A stretch of 64,000 nt of DNA from Cladosporium halotolerans (taxonomy: Eukaryota): assembly GCF_011745625.1 (NCBI RefSeq), contig NW_027191465.1, positions 372,001 to 436,000 of the forward strand, read 5' to 3'. Made by a program: the position numbers and the translations under genes. Below are positions 15,325 to 26,546 of this stretch, one piece after another (the first letter of the stretch is position 1; the number at the start of each line of letters is the position of its first letter). The notes under the pieces are model-generated. The model was not told the origin of the DNA. It did no database searches and worked only from the letters and a program-made list of their open reading frames with translations.

Positions 15325-18304
15325 ATGCATCAACACATCCGCTCTCCACCCCGGAGCAGCTCCGCCGCCGGCAACCCAGCAACGAATCCCGACAGGACGA
15401 ACAACCAGAGAGATCAAGGAGGGCTGCCGCAGCGGACGAGATCGAGCGTCGATCTGGCGTCGTACACCGAGAGGGCTGCGGCCGCGGCCGCCGCGGGCAG
15501 CTCGCTGCAGCAAGATAAGGATCACACGAAGTTGAACCAGATTATACAGGTGCGTTTTGGAAAGAAATGTGAATTGGAAAGAGACGGACAAACATGCTGA
15601 CGGAGGCTGTGACAGAACTTCCACACCAAGGCGGCGCTGACGATCTGTTCTGCGCGAGCCAACTTGCCGCCGGCGTACAATAAGGATGGGGATTTGAGGC
15701 AGAATAAATGGGTAAGTTCTTCTTGATTTTCCAGGAAAGGCATGTCTTCTTTGGGCCAAAAACGACAACGACGATATATGGAGCTTGAATGCGAAAGACT
15801 CGGATGCTGCATATTGCGGAAACTCAAGGCGACATTATATGGGCATGTTAAGGAAACGATGGCGATGATACTGTACCGCGGCTCAAGCAATCTGAGCTCC
15901 AGACTGGCTCAGAAGTGTGGCAGTCGTCTGATGTCGGAAGATCAATAGCCGGCACATCTGGATATCCTGTCTAATCCCTGGCGCGTCAAAGTCGACGTGC
16001 TGGTGAACTTGCAGCCACGTCTTGCCGAAACTCGTCATATCTCGTTTATCGAGCTGGACATGGTGGCCCTTTGAACCATTTCCGGGACTGAACAATCGCT
16101 TACGAGCGGCCGATCGGAATCCAGCACTCCACATGTCAATCTGTAACGAGCACCGGCCGGCGCCAGTAAAGTCAATCATTGAGGCCTTTCTTGATTCTTG
16201 CTGGAAGTCGATCCGTGATGATACTCCCACAGCCCTGAACTTGTCGATCAACTTGCTCCTCAGAGCTCTTGGGACGAGCGTCTAGGACTTTCACGTCACG
16301 GACACTGCTACTGGTTTCAGCCTCTATGCCAGAAAGAGCAACGAGCCTGTTGGGTGATCCTTCGGTGGCCTGCCGTTTCTTTGTCCTTGCACATAGTTGC
16401 TTGCTTCTCTTGCTTGTTTGCTGCCTTTGAGTGTAGTCTGTGCCTATGAGCAATCCGCTGACATTCTCTTTCCACAGTTCAACATCGTGCTTGATGAGAC
16501 CGATGTCCTCGTCGATGACCTGCAGGAGTGGAGGCGCCCAGATCTGAGTGATGAGCCACCGCTGCCTCTAGTTGTCGAAGTGTACGTTGATACGTCTAAT
16601 CTCACCCAAAACCAGTCGCTCGTCATCGTTGATGATAACGGCAAGCACTGGGATGTGGCAGACTCAATACCCCCAGAGTCCAGTTCGAGATCCAACAGGG
16701 CTGGTGGGCGGTACTTCGAGGTGATGTTGGAGCGGTGGACGATTGAGTTGGGCGACTTGAGCCGATACAAGGCTTCTCAGCTCAACGATCAGCTGCCAAA
16801 CGTGTACAAGAAGGGTGTGCTTCTCTTCAGGTCGCTGTACACATTTGCACGATTCCTTCCTGCGTGGAAGTTGCACAAGAGGTTGAGTCGGCAGCCGAGC
16901 AATGCCCAGCCGCTGAAGTTGCGATATCGTATACGGCAAGGACGGCCAGGGGGTGCCACGCGGCAATCAAGAGAGGCACTGAGCACGCCTCTCTGCCCTT
17001 CCGATCGCAGCAGTAACACTGCCGCCGAACACCACAGCTTTGAGCCGTTGTTGTGCTCTGCAGGACCGCTAGCAATCTCCGTGGACTACCGCACCAACAC
17101 AGACCTCACGGTGGCAGACGCGGAGGCGCTGCTCAGCTCCAGATTCGCAGGGCTCGATGCAGGCCTGTCTGCTCGCCCTCTTGGCGGTCGCTCTCTTCCT
17201 GGAGGGCATCATTATCCCTCTGCTGCGGATGACAGCAGCTCGAGCCTTGGAGTCGCTGGTGGTAGCAGCCGCGCAGGCGCTCGAGTAGCCGGTGGTGGAG
17301 CGTATGGGAGCCTGGGGACTTTCCACATGACTGGAAAGCGCGAGTCCCCCGTCTCAGCGCTCCGCCATCGCGCTGTCTCCGGCGCCAGCGACGACGCACC
17401 GACTTTGGACAGGAAGGTAACACCGCAATCAATACCAACCTCGTCCGCGGCAATGGACTACCTCAAGAATCCGCCCTTCAAGGCGGGCTCCGTTGCCTCT
17501 TCACCTCGCACCACCACCGCCGCCTCGCCTTCGTCTGCACCTCGTCCCTCTCCCCTCTCCGGCACATCTGCCCATTCGAAGCGTCTGTCGCTGAACACAC
17601 TACCACAACAAGCACTACGCAACCCGGGAGGCATCCCCGCAGACACCGCCATCGCCTCCTCCGGTTCTACTTCACCCAAGCCCGCCCCAGTCCATCGCTA
17701 CAGCAGCAGTTTCGCCGGTCGTAAGCGCTGGACCAGCACCTCACAAAGCAGCCGAGCCGGTGAGAGCGCCACCAGCAGCGGCCGCGCGAGCACCTCAAGC
17801 AAAGAGAAATCCGGCCAGCTCGCTCCCGAACAAGCATCAGGCACGCCCGGCAGCTCAGGCAGCGCGCGAACCGACGAAGACGACATCGCGGCCTTCATCT
17901 CCACCGTTGAGCGCGCCAAAGACCTCAAAGCCTTCTCCGCCCGCAAACCCGCCCCGCACAACACCGTCGTCAACCTCAGCAAGTTCCGCAACATGACACT
18001 GGCCAGCAGCGAGCTCGCCGACGAGATGAGCTCCTCCAGCCTCGTGCAGACCTCCTCTCTCACGCCGCCGTCCCGCCGTCTGTCGAACGTGCCGGGCCTG
18101 TCGACCTCGTCTTCCCCGAACCGCGCTCAGCCTCACGCACCCCACGTCCGCTCCCGCCTGTCGACGCAGAGCATCGCCGAGGAGATCGGGTCGGAGAAGA
18201 ACCGCAGACCCGAGCGCGAAGTCGAAGAAGAAGACGAAGACGTCGGCGAGGAGGAGAGCGACGACGACGAGCCGTTTATCTTCCAGCAGGACAACATCCT
18301 GTGA
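15325..18304 (+). CDS. ATG13: Autophagy-related protein 13
   Basis: Three exons (introns ~15550-15615 and 15712-16477). HORMA-domain segments KLNQIIQNFHTKAA, NKWFNIVLDETD, LERWTIEL, LPNVYKKGVLLFRSLYTFARFLPAWK, followed by a Ser-rich disordered tail. Confidence 0.92.
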
Positions 18305-18904
18305 GTCTCGATCAGCGGATCGATCGCAATCAAGCATTGGCAGAAAGATTCGCAATGCGTTTTTGGCGTTTTAGTTCAACCCTGATTCAAGGGAGGGAGG
18401 GAAGGAAGCGTGGAGTTTCGTTTGATGGGATTTGCTACTTTTCTTTTCGCCTTTCGCCCGAGGTCTCTGATCTCTGGGTTTGCTTCGTTTTCTCGCCCTT
18501 GCTTTACTACAATAACATTGGCTCCCCGCGTGGAAGGGGATCGCAACATTTGGACGGGACGTGCATACGCCGTATAGACTGAACGATACAGGAGTTACTC
18601 TGAGCTTAGGTATATCAAATGCTGATGATGACTTGCTCTCCCTCCTTTTTTTTTTCTTTTGTCAGAGGAGTGCCTGCAGGATCAAGTGATTCGTGATAAT
18701 CTTATGAATCGGACACCACCTCAAGACGTTCGACGCGCCATAGACTGGCGACATCGTTAAGCATCTTCGGATGCTCTTCGCTCGGAACCGCGGCTGGTTC
18801 CGATGCTTCTGGAATCTCTCTACCTAGGTACTAGGATCCTGCACGCGCGTCGATCGACCTGAATCAGACATGCAGCTAGTTCCCAAGGACCCAAAAAGGC
18901 AAAA

Positions 18905-19023
18905 ACATACAACAGGCGGGATTTCCAGATGGTCACCCATCCTAGTACTAGTCGCCCGGTTCAGTGCTTATATCTGGCAGAGCGGACGGGATGCCCAGTT
19001 TTCACTGACCTATGGTCGTATGT
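18905..19023 (-). rRNA. Dispersed 5S rRNA gene
   Basis: 119 nt ACATACGACCATAGG...AGTACTAGGATGGGTGACC...GTTGTATGT with complementary termini, followed by a T-run Pol III terminator. Confidence 0.95.
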
Positions 19024-19413
19024 GTCCTTTCATTGATAGAACGTGATCATGATTCTGTTGTTGATCTTAAAATCTCACTATCCGACGGGAAAAGCGTGGT
19101 TTCATCCGGCGACTATGATCACGGAGACCGCCTCTGAGAAGGAGCTTCCCGAATAAGTCTCACAGCGCGATGCCCAATTTCCGTTTTGCCGCATGTCTGT
19201 ATATTTTTCCCAGTGGAACCTTTCTCGTGACGCATGTCCTGCATGATGTCTTCCTTCGTCCGAAGGTATACTATCCGTCACTATATCAGCGAGTGAGGCA
19301 CAAAAAAACGCAAGCGTGTGCTCAGAACATTCTGCGTGGATGAAAGACTGATTTTCACACGAAGCCTCCAATTCCCTGTCCGTCCAGGCTGTGAAGACTA
19401 ATGGCACAAGTCG

Positions 19414-22400
19414 TCATCGCACTCCGTTTTCTCTGACAGTTAGTAATCGTTTTCTCTGTGTGAGTACGAGTAGGAGCAGCTGTCTTTGATATTTTCGGAG
19501 CGAGCTTTCTTTGTCTTCACCTTCGGCAGAGTCGTGTGCATATGCATCGCCGAACTTGTGGAGAAGTAGTTCCACCAGTCCCTTACTTGTCAATTTCTCA
19601 GCGATGTTGAGGGCAGCCATAAGATCTTGTCCTCCAAAGTCAACACCGGCATTGACTAGCAACTCTACGATTGCCACGAGACCTGTAACGCAAGCAGCTT
19701 GGAGAGCATTTTCATATTTTCCGCCTTTGGCACTACCGTCGGCTCCTTTCGCAAGCAGTGTCCTTGCGATCTTTTCGTGGCCCCCAGCACACGCTGCTTG
19801 TAGCGAGTTTCCCCAGTACCCCCCCTGAGCGTTGACATCGGCATCCTTGCCAAGCAGAAATTCCGTGATCTTCGCATGGCCCTTAGCACAGGCTGCTTGC
19901 AGCGCATTACCGTAGTAGCCGCCTTGTACGTTGGTTCCGGCGCCCTTGTCTAGCAGAAGTTCTGTGATTTTCTCATGGCCTTGAGCACAAGCAGCCTGCA
20001 GAGCGTTGTTGTAGTAGCCACCTTGCGAACTGACCTGGGCACCCTTTCCAAGCAGAAGCTCTACAATCCTTCCATAGCCTCCAGCACAAGCTGCCTGAAG
20101 GGCATATCCGTAGTGGCCTGCTTGATCGTTAACCCCGGCACCCCGGTCGAGCAAGATCTCTGTTAGCTTTTCATGACCAAGGGTTGAGGTTATGTACAGA
20201 ATAGATACATTTTCCTCTGCTCGCCAGATAGTCGGATTCTGGAAAGCTCCTCGAGCATTGACTGCAGCACCCTTATCAAGGAGCATTTCTGCCACCCTCT
20301 GATGACCGCCAGCGCATGCAGCCTGCAGAGCATTACCGTATTTTCGACCTTGAGCATTGACTTCGGCACCTTGGTCTAGCAAAAGCTGAACGGCTTCTCC
20401 GTTACCCTTCTCTGAACATGATATGAGCATAGTCTCTGAACCTCCTTCTGACTTGATGGATATACCACTTTCGATCAGTAGTTTTGCCGATTCCAAAGCT
20501 CGCTTTGCTAATGCAACCCCCAGAAGCTTTCTCTGTTCTTCCTGTGAATGGTGTGCGATTGCACCGTGTTTGAGAATGACTCCGACGACTTCGGCGTTCC
20601 GCCCATGGATGGCAGCACGCAAGATTGTACGATGCCGCTCATATGATGAGAAAAACTCTGCATTTCGTTGCAGCTCGATGTTGAGAAGACCTGGTGCGCC
20701 TTTTTCAGTGAAGACGTACGCGCGTGTCACAGATGAGGAATATTGGCGAACCTCATACTTTTCAAACATGTTGTTGAGGGTAACCCAAGTTGCTAAAGGG
20801 AAAGACCATGCGATCTCATTCTGGTGAATGTTTCTGCTGCATATCTTTTCAGAGTGGAAGATCACGTTCTCTACAGCGTACCCAAGAAATGGATAGAGTC
20901 TGGCAATCTGATCGCGCAGGTCTCTCGCCTCTTTTGTCTTAGCAGTTGGGAGAGGATCGGATAAAGATAGCTGCCGGGTTGTGTTCTCTGAAATAGCTCC
21001 AAGGCAGCATTGCCTGACGTACTCGTGGCTCGAACCTTCCAGATCCTGACTAAGGTCTCGCGCAATTTGGTCATGGCCTTGCTTCATCCTCAATTTCTGT
21101 GCCAGTGTCCTGAATCCGGTATCGCGGAGGTAGTCTCGTACAGACTCATGTATGAATTGGACCGTTGCATGCTTGCCCCTTGTCGTTTCAGCAAGCCCCT
21201 TGGATGAGTTTAGCAGGAACCTCTTTGCGATTTCTGAGTCAGGTTCGTCACCGATGTTAGCCCCTTGGAGTTTATCGGGAGGAGTGCTCATGACAGCATG
21301 ATATAACTCCTTGCAGTCAAGTGGACGTTTTGCGAACATGATCCATTGCAGTGTTGGGATAAGATAGGTATCTTCTTGCGTCCCTTGGACTAAGATGTCC
21401 TGGAATAGCTTATCCAGATCATCTGGAATCTCTTCTAATCGATCCTTGATTTTGAAGGCATGTCCATGGTCGCTGTCCGTGTTGAGAATTTGTACAACAA
21501 GAACAACCCAGAGAAAAATGCCTGATGCTCGTTGCCGGATTTTTGTAGCCATCTCGGACTTCAAGCGAGTCGAAACTTTCAGCTTGTTTTGTATGTAAGC
21601 CGAGATATCGTCTTCGTGGCCCTCTTGATCTTCAAGAACGAGTTCTTGACAGGCTTTCATCGAAACGTGGGGATAATGGCGACTCGAGAAGCATATACGG
21701 AAGTTGAGATGCTCCAGAATAGCCGATTCAGTAATTTCCTCGAAGGCTTCGATCATACACCGAATGTCTGCTTCGTTGCATTCGTCTAAGGCGTCAATAT
21801 AGCATGTCAAGCTATTCTCCTTGAGAGACATGACTGCTTCGCGAGACAAGGTACTCAGCAGTCTGACTGGCCAAGTACTGCGATTTCTCTGCCCGCCCAG
21901 TGTTTTCTGAAGCCCTGGGATCTTTTCCATCATTTGATAGAGAAGTGACCGGTACATGCCTTCAGTAGATTTCTCCAGGTCGCTACCTCGCGCGTTGAAG
22001 AAGAAAGCAATTATGGTAGTCTCTTCTGAGTGTTTTCGAGCATGGTCGACTGCATGTTTCATCAATGTAGATTTTCCCACTGCAGGTTTGCCTTTGATCC
22101 ATAGAAAGCCATTGTTGTCTGATCTCATGTCTCTATTGACCCAATCTCTGTATGTCTCCCTTCCGAACAGCCACTGACATGTTTTCGTACAAGCCGGGCT
22201 AATGTTGAAATATCGGTCGTTCATCTGTTCAAATTGGAGTGAGTCGAAAGCTTCGCTGCTCTCGGCCGAGTCATATGATGGGCGCTCCGCAGGCTTCATC
22301 TGGTTTGCATACTGGTAGACGGGGGCGTAGTATTCGTGATGTTGAAAGCTATCCCCGAGGTGCGCACGAGCGTAGCCTTGCACCTGGCTATTGTTATAGG

Positions 22401-22524
22401 TACGCTGAGTTTGCTCATCTCTTCGCCTTTTCGCTCCTGAAAACTCGTTTTTGGTCAAGACATGTTTGCGAGGTGTGGTGTCCCTTGGAGGCGTCTGCAA
22501 TGGTTGAGATGTAGGGCTGGTCAT
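19414..22524 (-). CDS. Fungal NLR-like protein: N-terminal amyloid-like motif + NACHT NTPase + ankyrin repeats
   Basis: Intronless, 1036 aa. Walker A WIKGKPAVGKSTLMK, Walker B CYIDALDEC, SSRHYP, ASGIFLWVVLVV, VQFIHESVRDYL, and about 8 ankyrin repeats (NALQAAC..GH). Confidence 0.92.
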   Translation of the reverse strand: MTSPTSQPLQTPPRDTTPRKHVLTKNEFSGAKRRRDEQTQRTYNNSQVQGYARAHLGDSFQHHEYYAPVYQYANQMKPAERPSYDSAESSEAFDSLQFEQMNDRYFNISPACTKTCQWLFGRETYRDWVNRDMRSDNNGFLWIKGKPAVGKSTLMKHAVDHARKHSEETTIIAFFFNARGSDLEKSTEGMYRSLLYQMMEKIPGLQKTLGGQRNRSTWPVRLLSTLSREAVMSLKENSLTCYIDALDECNEADIRCMIEAFEEITESAILEHLNFRICFSSRHYPHVSMKACQELVLEDQEGHEDDISAYIQNKLKVSTRLKSEMATKIRQRASGIFLWVVLVVQILNTDSDHGHAFKIKDRLEEIPDDLDKLFQDILVQGTQEDTYLIPTLQWIMFAKRPLDCKELYHAVMSTPPDKLQGANIGDEPDSEIAKRFLLNSSKGLAETTRGKHATVQFIHESVRDYLRDTGFRTLAQKLRMKQGHDQIARDLSQDLEGSSHEYVRQCCLGAISENTTRQLSLSDPLPTAKTKEARDLRDQIARLYPFLGYAVENVIFHSEKICSRNIHQNEIAWSFPLATWVTLNNMFEKYEVRQYSSSVTRAYVFTEKGAPGLLNIELQRNAEFFSSYERHRTILRAAIHGRNAEVVGVILKHGAIAHHSQEEQRKLLGVALAKRALESAKLLIESGISIKSEGGSETMLISCSEKGNGEAVQLLLDQGAEVNAQGRKYGNALQAACAGGHQRVAEMLLDKGAAVNARGAFQNPTIWRAEENVSILYITSTLGHEKLTEILLDRGAGVNDQAGHYGYALQAACAGGYGRIVELLLGKGAQVSSQGGYYNNALQAACAQGHEKITELLLDKGAGTNVQGGYYGNALQAACAKGHAKITEFLLGKDADVNAQGGYWGNSLQAACAGGHEKIARTLLAKGADGSAKGGKYENALQAACVTGLVAIVELLVNAGVDFGGQDLMAALNIAEKLTSKGLVELLLHKFGDAYAHDSAEGEDKESSLRKYQRQLLLLVLTQRKRLLTVRENGVR
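19640..20420 (-). repeat. Tandem 99-nt ankyrin-coding repeats
   Basis: 33-aa unit GGxYxNALQAACAxGHxxIxELLLxKGA repeated six times, plus divergent units. Confidence 0.85.
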
Positions 22525-22776
22525 TTCAAGGTTCCGTAAAAATGACTGTTTGCATCAGCAAGGTCGTTTCCCTCGGTCTGTGTACTGTGGTTGCAAATCG
22601 GATAGAGATGGAAGCAAGAGGCAAAAATGCATCTTGGGCCAGCTCAGCCGCATCTCGCCTACAGCGCGAATCAGATGGGTGTCGCTTATAATAGATTGGG
22701 CTAACCTGAGATTCGACGCTCGGAAGCAGCTTTGTTTAGATCTTGTGGCTAAGAAGAAGGGGAGATTGGGGGTGTT

Positions 22777-22815
22777 GGATGGCATGCCCAATTTTCACTG
22801 ACCTATAGTAGTGTG
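22777..22815 (-). pseudogene. Degenerate 5'-terminal fragment of 5S rRNA
   Basis: 22784-22815 (atgcccaattttcactgacctatagtagtgtg) matches 18991-19022 (atgcccagttttcactgacctatggtcgtatg) at 28/32 positions in the same orientation. Confidence 0.8.
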
Positions 22816-23076
22816 AATTCTACTCCCATACTCCATACAATATGGGGGTTTCAAACATGCGATAGGCTGAGGCCACATCCGTCAACTTTAGCTCACATAT
22901 CATGTCGGCAATCCACGAATCTGCAGACCTGAGCGGGCTCGGAAAGCACTTTTCACCTCGTCTCGCGTTGACATGCAGATTCGACAATGACAGGACTTGC
23001 GTGGTCAATAATAGGAAGGTCTCTTTCGTCGGTCGACCTCAATGCAGAATCTAGACACTCCCGCCGCATCAACCAT

Positions 23077-24939
23077 CTACAGGGCTTTAGCCGTGCCGTG
23101 CAAAGCCTCGCCCACGTACTTGGCCAGCGCAATCATCTTCTCCTCCTGTAACCTGCGACCGACCAACTGCACGCTCACGTGAGCGCCGTCGTAAATTTCG
23201 GGGTCATCTGTAAATCAAGAGTCAGTCTCACATTGCCATCAACCGATATTCGAAAACGAGAAACTTACAATTATCCTGCGTCTCCTGATCAACCTCATCA
23301 ACCGCCTTGAAACTCTCGTTCTTCTTGTCGACGTTCTTATCCACCTGCGTAACCGGCACGACAACACTCGTGTAATCCAGCACATTGACGAAGCTCGAGT
23401 ACGTCAAATACGTGTACTTCGCCGGCCGCGCCGCCGCGAACGGCGCCAGTGGGCTGATCACCGCGTCCACGGGCCTGCCGGTCCCCGTCAACTCCGCGGT
23501 CGAGTTCCAGTACTCCATGTACGCCTTCTGCGCCTCGCGCTTCGCGACGTTGACGCGCATGATGTCGCTCGCGGTTTTCTGCGGCTCGTCGGCGGATATG
23601 AGCTGGGGAGCGGGTTCTTCGCCTGAGAGGGCGAAGGCGGCGCGCGCGTCGGCGCCGCCGTCGAAGGCGTAGATTTCGGAGGCAAGGGAGGCGAGGTGCG
23701 AGTGTGGGGGGTTGGGGTTCCAGTCGATTACTGTGTGGCCGCGGGCGCGGAGGGTGGCGGCGACGAGGTTCAGGGCGCGGGTTACGGGCGGGTGAGGGGC
23801 GCAGGAGCCGTCGTGGGAGAGGAGGGCGAAGGAGAGGGGGGTGCTGGTGCGGGAGTGGAGGTCGGAGATGGCGAGGTCGGCGGTTGGGCGCCAAGGGATG
23901 TCGTGCACGAGGGGGTCGTGGAGCCAGGGGGAGGTGCTGAGGATGGCTTGCGTGAGGAGTTTGAGGGCGCCGGGGGTGGTGGCCAGGGGGCCCACGACGG
24001 AGAGGATGCTGTTTTGCCCGTCCCAGCTGTTGGCCATGCCTTCGTAGGGGAGGCGGCCGGCGGACGGGCGCAGGCCGTAGAGGCCGTTGAAGGCGGCGGG
24101 AATCCTGATGGAGCCACCTGGGGTGGTGTGAGTATGTTGGTTCTGCAGGAGACAAGGTCATGATTGACACACCAATATCAGTGCCAAAGCCAGCACAGCT
24201 ACCGCGAAGTCCGATCAAGGCTCCCTCGCCGCCTGATGAGCCGCCGGAGCTGAGATTGCGGTTCTTGGGGTTCCAGGTATATCCGATAACGTTGTTGACG
24301 GTCTCACCACACATCAATGTGTGAGGGACCGAAGTCTTGCAGTATAGGGTGGCACCAAGCTTGCGCAACTCGCTGACCATCTCGCTCTCAAAAGTGCGCT
24401 CCTTACCGGTGTTCTTCTGGCCCTGGAAGTTGCCGATCCAGCCAACATATCCCATATGAGTGTCCACGCTGTGACAAGTTAGGCAGGCTCCAGACTCAGC
24501 ACCACAGTCCCTCAGATTGGACCTACCCTTTGACATGGAACTGATCTTTAAGACTGACAGGCAGGCCGTGGAGAGCTCCGATCGGCTTCTTGTGCTCCTT
24601 GAAGTAGTTGTCCGTTGTCTCGGCCTGGGCAATAGCTTGATCGAAGAAGATCTCGTGCAAGCAGTTGACGAGCTGGTGCGCGATCGACGCGCGGTGGCAG
24701 AACGCCTTCGCAACCTCTACAGCCGTCCATTGCCCGCTAGTAGTCTTCTCGACAATCCCCACGGCGTCTGTCTCGGTGATCTCAATCTCCTTCTTATCTA
24801 AGAACTGCTGGATATAGGCGCCGGTGACATCGCGCTGCTTGTCCGCGGACGGTATGTCGGAGATGCGCCATTCCTGTGGGATCAGCGACAAGACACTGTC
24901 GGCTTTGTTCTGCGCGGTCTGCTTCCAGTCCCCTGCCAT
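23077..24939 (-). CDS. Amidase signature family enzyme (acetamidase/general amidase)
   Basis: Four exons. LHGLPVSLKDQF (catalytic Lys), GGSSGGEGALI, GTDIGGSIRIPAAFNG, and final VQLVGRRLQEEK. Confidence 0.93.
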
Positions 24940-26546
24940 GGTGTTGCTTTCTTCGGGTCGCTGAATGTTGGCCTGGATCTTTCGCCAGTCGCTAGGCTTG
25001 ATGTGCTTTTTGAACGGGGACTCTTGGGCCTTTTCCATAGGGAGAACAATATAGATGGAAGAGAGATCCAACCTACCTTCTACTTCGAGTGAAACAGACA
25101 GGCAGCCCTCAGGTTTGAGCTGTTAGCTTATCTGAAGGTTGTGTTGTCGACCTTCCCTTTGCAGAGAGAAGGCGGGGACGGCACTTGGTGAGGGGAGGGG
25201 TTGTGCTCCGGTCATCGGAGGTGCTGAAGCTGAGCTCCTTTTAGCCGTCTTGACGACTTCCTGACTTGAACGCAGCAACATCGAACACAATGCAGTGGAG
25301 AGAGATTGTCCGAATGCACGAATGGCGCCTCGGGTGTCTTCAGCTGTGCATGCGGGTTGAACAATAATTCAAGCAGCACTTGTGAAAGCAGAGTCCGAGT
25401 GTTGCTTTGGCCAAGCTCCTCTCCCCCATGAAGCTGTCCTGTCGCGGCAGAGCGAGCTCCACACTGCATCATCGTTGCAGGGTCGCCCTTCGGCGGGAGT
25501 AAGGAGTGCCATTACGTGAAGTCTTCGGAGGGACGTACATCCGCCTCCAGCCAGGTGAGCGACGAGCCGGGTCCGAGAAGGCATAACTCATACCTCTCCA
25601 GAGTTTTCGCATATGCTGTGCGACGTTGATCTTTGCACAGCTCTCCGGGGGCCATCCCAAGATCTAACATGAAGCTGTTAATCATCGTGCATGCATCTGC
25701 CGAGCCGGGCGCATCGGACGTGTTTCTCACCGTCTAGATGCCCATTTGCATCTTTCATCGAGCCACGCGCGTACTAGCATGGTGGTACCGGGATGACATG
25801 GACGTGCACGCGTTCGTCTCAGAATCGCGGAAATAACGTTACTTGCATGCGCACGTGCACGGAGTTTGCGCTCTGAGGATCAATTGGCACCTCACGCTCG
25901 GGACAAGCTCGCAGCCACCAAAAGGCTTGGTCAATAACAATCCCCAGAGACATTCCTGGAGAGCCTCGGCCTGCCAGCCGTATGCACAATCGCATAGCGT
26001 TACCCGCGAATCATGAATGGCTTGGCCATCTACCGAACGCCCGTGATGAGGCTCTTCTCCACGATTCGTGCCGTGGGGGCCCCACGATAGGATTGACATC
26101 GACCGATGACACGGCCTCCCCATAGCACTCCCTCCGTCAGCCCGCGTGCTCCACAAGCCTTTCGTCCGCCAATCGTCTGGTTGGCTCGATGATTCTTCGG
26201 GCAGGCGATCGTCTCTATGGACCCGCGCGGGAGACCTGAGAACGACGAACTCTGGAGAGTGTGGGGATGATGATGGAACTGGCTGAGGGGAAGGTTGATG
26301 ATCGACGGCTCGGCCGCGTCAGAATGGAATAGCAGCAACGGTGAAGAGCCGCATGAGCTTCAATGGCTGTGTCAATCTCTGCTTGGTTGTTTCGGAGCCG
26401 GATGTTCTTTAGACTGGGTGTGCCTCGTCTTCGTTCCGTCGACGTCCTGCTCATCGCGCCGCACGTGCGACACCATATCGCATTGGACATCCCATCCGCC
26501 CAAACTCCTTACTGACCACTGAGTACGCCGTGCCATCGTCACCACC

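Follow-up and report, generated by a model that had tools for sequence, protein, structure and literature searches.

An amyloid-motif receptor without a neighbouring effector in Cladosporium halotolerans, and candidate effectors elsewhere in its genome

How might an immune receptor act when the executioner that it would command is not encoded beside it? The question is raised by a stretch of 64,000 nucleotides from the fungus Cladosporium halotolerans (contig NW_027191465.1, positions 372,001 to 436,000; G000:C46:372001-436000 in our numbering, and hereafter the window), which belongs to a genome assembly of 27.9 Mb in 691 contigs. It carries P0001, an uninterrupted open reading frame for a NOD-like receptor (NLR) composed of a leader, one HET-s-related amyloid motif (HRAM), a NACHT domain and ankyrin repeats (Table 1). 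A preliminary description of the window, made from the letters alone, had noticed a HET-s-like motif with no effector gene next to it, and had proposed either a mobile receptor that signals in trans to an effector elsewhere or an orphaned one. Here we find that signalling in trans is the best reading: P0001 is probably one of about 20 unpaired receptors that feed two effectors, and the first candidate among these, a HeLo protein that we call P0122, is a tentative choice.

The amyloid motif of P0001

We scored the receptor on an HRAM profile of our own, built from the effector side only (254 repeats from 127 HeLo proteins, the doubled repeats having been extracted from 127 of the 150 of suitable length), with positions numbered after Daskalov et al. 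2015 (PMC4518210). Within residues 35-65, the stretch that the preliminary description had proposed to score, the 21-residue register at residues 39-59 scores 20.9 bits, while the next-best window in P0001 reaches -7.5 bits. That score was attained by none of 20,000 shuffles of residues 1-100 and by none of 59,793 windows of NLR bodies, and it remained at 20.9 bits after a near-copy of an own-genome effector was removed from the profile. The peptide first quoted for this locus is exactly residues 41-60 of the frame (22345-22404, minus strand) and lies almost wholly inside the register, so its HET-s-like identity is borne out. Position 19 is Gly (G57), position 15 is basic (R53), and hydrophobic residues occupy four of positions 5, 8, 10, 16 and 18 (Y, S, V, A and L); Asp stands at 20 and Arg at 3. 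The motif is present once, at the N terminus of an NLR that, as first described, has no enzymatic or HeLo domain ahead of the NACHT: for residues 1-120 no Pfam family matched at E<=10, no Pfam model matches the motif, and an ESM Atlas search with residues 1-95 gave no usable match. An AlphaFold model is uninformative here, since its predicted local distance difference test score (pLDDT), about 25 over residues 1-90, is also below 60 over much of the NACHT. The Walker A motif of the NACHT is intact (residues 145-152, by the invariant columns of the homologue alignment).

The preliminary description had set the motif beside the prion repeat of HET-s itself, which is of class HRAM1, and to that class it does not belong. 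When effectors are divided by positions 3 and 5, a split of our own making, the motif scores 20.0 bits against the HRAM3-like set (81 effectors) and 9.4 bits against the HRAM1-like set (15 effectors). On these scores it is HRAM3-like rather than HRAM1, and HRAM3-like only, given that Arg41 stands at position 3 where HRAM3 has its hallmark His. Cross-seeding with [Het-s] may well be negative, because the motif is HRAM3-like, and as a few side chains can insulate HRAM classes from each other, such a result would leave the reading of signalling in trans standing.

Could the motif be decayed, or lie ahead of the true start codon? It is present in 80 of 119 homologues, and these have His (18), Arg (16), Gln (14), Asn (13) or Lys (12) at position 3 and Gly (26), Ser (24) or Ile (10) at position 8, with G or S in 50 of the 80; Arg3 and Ser8 are frequent on the NLR side and therefore not signs of decay. 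Mean identity in 18 close relatives is 0.51 for the motif and 0.59 for the NACHT, compared with 0.17 for the leader and 0.32 for the linker, and of the 12 residues identical between the motifs of P0001 and L062, a member of its clade, eight are written with different codons. Since conservation of the motif comes close to that of the NACHT, and with differing codons, we infer that it is translated and under constraint, which argues against both a downstream start and decay. Decay is rejected on this conservation together with the NLR-side frequency of Arg3 and Ser8, and a start downstream is unlikely, as a second Met comes only at residue 77 and the proteins of close homologues begin 28-38 residues ahead of the motif. 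The closest named homologues of P0001 are Cladosporium proteins, at 42-43% identity.

Candidate effectors and signalling in trans

No second HRAM was found in the six frames of the window, where the P0001 motif is the sole match at or above 13 bits, and a HeLo profile search of the window returned nothing. The flanking genes are ATG13 and an amidase, neither of them an amyloid-motif effector, and the statement that no effector lies next to the receptor therefore stands. Elsewhere in the genome six HeLo matches were found, and two of these, P0122 and P0123, are HeLo proteins of the kind that the preliminary description had proposed to look for, with a doubled C-terminal motif of the matching class (HRAM3-like, 31-39 bits). 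P0123 (C217) lies head-to-head with an NLR of its own. Within 20 kb around P0122 (G000:C122) there is no other HRAM and no recognisable NACHT or NLR frame. Near-identical copies of P0122 occur on 16 public contigs, along with one 88% relative. A model of P0122, at a mean pLDDT of 86.8, finds a match in the N-terminal domain of HET-s (E 8e-6), and the model tail is a two-rung solenoid like those of HELLF and HET-s fibrils (probability 0.85-0.99, with weak E-values of 0.3-0.6). With the second repeat (r2) of P0122 the P0001 motif shares 8 of 21 residues (BLOSUM 40, a score matched by 5 of 126 foreign r2 repeats), and with r2 of P0123 it shares 5 of 21; published receptor motifs, designated r0, tend to resemble r2 (PMC4518210).

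In the NWD2/HET-S system, the published sequence of events runs from ligand through oligomerisation and an amyloid seed to HeLo conversion and membrane damage (PMC4344463). By analogy, a non-self ligand sensed by the ankyrin repeats would cause P0001 to oligomerise, and the clustered HRAMs would stack into a HET-s-type beta-solenoid seed. In a HeLo pore-former from an unlinked locus, most likely P0122, this seed would then convert the two HRAM copies, and the converted protein would damage the membrane and bring about cell death. We consider it fairly probable, on this analogy, that P0001 signals in trans to a shared, unlinked effector, and the corresponding proposal of the preliminary description holds as the best reading, now with a concrete candidate in the same genome. 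The sequence comparison would make P0122 the likeliest target, at somewhat less than an even chance, and P0123, the next candidate, an unlikely one.

Receptors far outnumber effectors in this genome: the N-terminal HRAMs that reach 13 bits number at least 21 (17, plus 4 from a census by DNA pattern), against 2 effectors. Three of the 21 lack a NACHT, several are truncated, and in four the NACHT is presumed to be linked across an intron; two further N-terminal HRAMs score 9-12 bits. The pattern gave 57 matches, compared with 19 for a reversed control, and the 40 examined, namely those that were new and free of in-frame stops, held the four added N-terminal motifs and no C-terminal HRAM, in a census that is partial and misses many true motifs, including both P0123 repeats and the first repeat (r1) of P0122. 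In a quick tree (80 rows, with homologues as far as P0060 in the list), the sister group of P0001 (SH-aLRT, an approximate likelihood ratio test of the Shimodaira-Hasegawa type, 88) includes L064 (48%), whose head-to-head neighbour is a HeLo gene truncated where the contig stops, and HeLo is thus a plausible effector class for the P0001 clade. L062 has no HeLo within 3.4 kb upstream. As a separate observation, the motifs of the NLRs head-to-head with HeLo genes (L005:2357-2437 and L064:~1570-1630) fall one or two residues below 21, and those of unpaired NLRs are full length.

Several findings weigh against signalling from P0001 to a resident HeLo effector. The L064 pair is not demonstrably HRAM-coupled, because the L064 motif is a variant of reduced length and the HeLo gene is cut before any repeat. 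In P0001 the HRAM3 hallmark His is absent and position 8 is polar, and the motif starts at residue 39, beyond the residues 5-9 that are usual for N-terminal HRAMs (PMC9815663). When both repeats are summed, 29 of 126 foreign effectors match the P0001 motif as well as P0122 does, and the preference for P0122 is therefore a hint only. Its r1 match is below average, and other own-genome motifs are closer to its r2 (L036: 10 of 21 residues). Searching the genome with the C-terminal part of P0122 brought back P0122 alone, and that search was therefore insensitive.

The alternative that survives best, although we judge it unlikely, is that P0001 is a true orphan, whose cognate HeLo neighbour was lost at capture or during decay of the element that carried it, and whose motif cannot seed the resident effectors. 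P0001 would then be silent here, or would work only in strains or heterokaryons with the cognate effector. The head-to-head HeLo retained in the sister clade fits such a loss, but L062, of the same clade as P0001, is without one in the 3.4 kb upstream, and while several P0001 paralogues are truncated or contain stops, P0001 itself is intact through 1036 residues and has an allele, 96% identical, with an identical motif. A seeding barrier is conceivable, since a few side chains, including some at positions 1-4, set such barriers between HRAMs (bioRxiv 2020.07.06.188508), the motif has Arg at 3, and its summed match to P0122 is unremarkable; against this, the amino-acid sequence of the motif is conserved over the clade (about 52% identical). 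Of the two options first offered, 'orphaned' is thus the weaker, as effectors that match do exist here, the motif shows conservation, and unpaired receptors are the rule in this genome.

Less probable again is that the membrane pore is not the main role of the motif, which would instead join P0001 to other HRAM proteins, such as ankyrin proteins without a NACHT, or to itself, perhaps inside the nucleus. Directly ahead of the motif is a basic cluster, KRRR (residues 32-35), which we take to resemble a nuclear localisation signal of the monopartite type; of 69 homologues, 32 have K[KR]x[KR] ahead of the motif, compared with 41 of 1850 control windows, but the homologues are not independent of one another and the controls were taken from folded domains. 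A literature search for a basic cluster ahead of HRAMs turned up none. Three HRAM frames without a NACHT would supply partners, two of which (L175, C57:522.8k, and L181, C112:52.7k) run straight into ankyrin repeats, the third being L011:3744, and the excess of receptors over effectors points the same way. These NACHT-less proteins may, however, be derived or broken receptors, and the same class does have canonical HeLo effectors.

A missed effector, whether enzymatic with a single C-terminal HRAM (as in NLR12/PNP_UDP), built on an unfamiliar domain or absent from the assembly, is highly improbable: the published HRAM3-like NLR12 class, whose receptors are unlinked, does use PNP_UDP effectors (PMC9815663), our genome searches scored first-look candidates only, exon by exon, the pattern census catches part of the motifs and the assembly is in 691 contigs, but the sole NLR-type PNP_UDP is decayed and without a motif, the HeLo-like and SesA matches have no HRAM3, and the pattern matches examined held no C-terminal HRAM.

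Other partners were considered and rejected. The PNP_UDP matches are two housekeeping enzymes and one decayed PNP_UDP-NB-ARC gene without a motif, and no PNP_UDP effector with one C-terminal HRAM was found in the genome. Nine HeLo-like and five SesA matches have no HRAM3, and L004 (C111:1234.7k) is a HeLo protein with a different, Gln-containing doubled motif, at about 1 bit. The decayed gene, L061 (C217:1150-1153k), is the only NLR-type PNP_UDP found. The doubled motif of L004 is a candidate amyloid tail, as are the G/N-rich tails of the HeLo-like and SesA proteins L041 (C142:44k) and L163 (C18), which suggests that several amyloid pathways may run in parallel in one genome.

The 5S setting and a probable route of arrival of the receptor

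Table 1. Features at the P0001 locus, in positions of the window
Feature	Residues	Position	Strand	Remarks
P0001, NLR open reading frame	1-1036	19414..22524	-	uninterrupted
Single HRAM (r0)	39-59	22348..22410	-	21-residue register
Basic cluster KRRR	32-35	22420..22431	-	directly ahead of HRAM
NACHT (Pfam NPHP3_N)	115-282	21679..22182	-	E 4.9e-32
Ankyrin-repeat sensor region	~699-992	19549..20430	-	99-nt repeats, 60-73% alike
Complete 5S rRNA gene		18904..19023	-	co-oriented, 390 bp past P0001 stop
Decayed left end of 5S-targeting element family		22732..22776	-	directly past 5S nt 40
5S rRNA gene 5' fragment (nt 2-40)		22777..22815	-	39 nt, 85% identical to downstream gene
ATG13 (long exon)		16724..18304	+	flanking gene
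Amidase		23228..25038	-	flanking gene

The preliminary description had placed P0001 between two 5S sequences, at about 250 and 390 bp. The distances stand, at 252 and 390 bp, but only the downstream 5S is a whole gene, and the upstream one is a fragment that breaks at nt 40. Past this break lies the decayed left end, which in an anchored test scores 21.8 against a maximum of 12.1 over 42,634 positions (best of four offsets), and which blastn extension also finds. The genome has 46 Rfam matches to 5S and eight 5' fragments; most of the fragments break at nt 40/41, and several of them then share the end sequence. Three contigs of an unrelated run have a similar end past 5S nt 40, and one contig of that run spans 18997-23071 with 55 differences, so the arrangement is no assembly error. 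The sequence of the spacer at 19024-19413 occurs nowhere else in the genome. Coverage in run X12 is 39-47x over the flanks and 3-9x, with gaps, over the island; this is not evidence of presence or absence, because no contig joins across the island. An empty site was not seen, and the window flanks show no synteny with the 80 related loci.

From this we consider it probable that the island is a relic of a 5S-targeting element, and P0001 probably arrived as cargo of such a (Starship-type) element, of which the left end alone survives. Three points speak against the element: an unanchored profile search missed the left end, no match to a right end was found at the locus, and there is no captain, P0001 being the only gene. 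The DUF3435 matches of the genome sit on C246, one of them with a stop. As for the 'mobile' receptor, the decayed left end argues for past mobility, and the lack of captain and right end tells against the rest.

The evidence is mixed on whether this NLR family is associated with 5S genes in general. Among metagenome clusters, 6 of 24 HRAM-positive ones lie no more than 2 kb from a 5S (0.15 expected at the density of this genome) compared with 0 of 43 HRAM-negative ones, two groups that differ in source organism, and none of the HRAM-positive clusters has an element end. For the other HRAM genes of the genome the counts are 0 of 21 within 2 kb and 5 of 21 within 20 kb (1.5 expected).

A number of side observations concern the 5S copies and the element family. 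The 5S copy downstream of P0001 has five private changes in its 3' part relative to the common copy and none in nt 1-41, as if a split gene had regained its 5' half. Three other runs have contigs that diverge at 23071, a little beyond the 3' end of the amidase, a further insertion/deletion polymorphism beside the island. A second 5S 5' fragment with the element left end is followed about 0.9 kb on by an HRAM NLR of 38 bits (L050:5145-7000; C413:62-64k). On G000:C246:103.6k-200.5k (L048, L026, L002, L039, L059, L054), about 97 kb between 5S junctions hold three further element ends, the stop-bearing DUF3435 gene, and ankyrin, HeLo-fusion and HeLo-like genes, which we read as nested or serial 5S-targeting elements. 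At L054:1051-1182 an element right end directly abuts a left end without an intervening 5S, in the manner of a circle junction or a tandem insertion, and at L054:6342-6420 and L155:3957-4035 the right end is similar to 5S nt 14-35 and stands in place of the target gene's 5' part. Six metagenome HRAM NLRs (L078, L081, L082, L088, L130 and L132) lie 0.55-1.7 kb from 5S genes that are mostly whole, without an element end.

Known systems and what the locus adds

Like NWD2/HET-S of Podospora anserina (PMC4344463, PMC4518210), P0001 has one N-terminal 21-residue motif on a NACHT NLR without an effector domain, two-repeat HeLo proteins are present in the genome, and G19, R15 and most core positions fit. 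NWD2, by contrast, has a WD40 sensor, an HRAM1 motif and an adjacent effector, whereas P0001 has ankyrin repeats and an HRAM3-like motif at residue 39 behind a basic leader, with Arg rather than Asn at position 3, and with its candidate effector unlinked and no HeLo gene adjacent. The HRAM3 NLR/HeLo pairs of Daskalov, Dyrka and Saupe 2015 (PMC4518210) give the best profile match, and both resident effectors are HRAM3-like; the pairs differ in their His at 3, where P0001 has Arg, and P0001 has Ser at 8. In the same work 98 of 155 effectors have an adjacent NLR and 57 have none. The NLR12 class (Wojciechowski et al. 2022, PMC9815663) resembles P0001 in its HRAM3-like motif and in receptors that are rarely beside an effector and in excess (mean 5.7:1, and in one strain of Trichoderma harzianum 13 NLRs for a single effector). 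It differs in its one-motif PNP_UDP effector and its mostly Sordariomycete hosts, where here the candidates are two-repeat HeLo proteins. That paper offers the control of one effector by many NLRs as speculation, and also lists an NLR/HeLo pair with distant accession numbers in one Rachicladosporium genome.

On the side of the element, 5S-targeting Starships carrying NLRs, and derelicts without DUF3435, are described (PMC9156397, PMC11162782), and Starship capture of NLRs is noted (PMC13449251). Their 5S genes are likewise broken at nt 40/41, with a shared end next and NLR cargo. The island here is only 3.8 kb with one gene, without a right end or a DUF3435 captain as first gene, and the 5S downstream of it is a whole gene, not a 3' remainder.

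That unlinked HRAM NLRs can outnumber effectors is already published (PMC9815663), and P0001 as a single gene is ordinary. To this the locus adds a candidate effector with a name, a ratio of about 10:1 in which the effectors are HeLo proteins and not PNP_UDP, a basic leader that is conserved, and a tie to a 5S-targeting element. In the literature consulted we saw no experimental test of many NLRs sharing one amyloid-gated effector, and this genome, with about 20 receptors and two effectors, one of them solitary, is a compact test case. A broader idea, which we regard as doubtful, is that 5S-targeting giant elements deliver effector-less sensors, each connected through a compatible HRAM3-like tag with one or two HeLo executioners already resident; to this plug-in network the basic leader and the HRAM-ankyrin proteins that lack a NACHT would also belong, for nuclear targeting or as amplifiers or decoys. 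The literature searched turned up no link between 5S-targeting elements and an HRAM-wired sensor network. If the shared effector is real, fungal immunity would have a fan-in architecture, which would explain how receptors can move without an effector, and if the plug-in network is real as well, new specificities would be gained without a new toxin gene.

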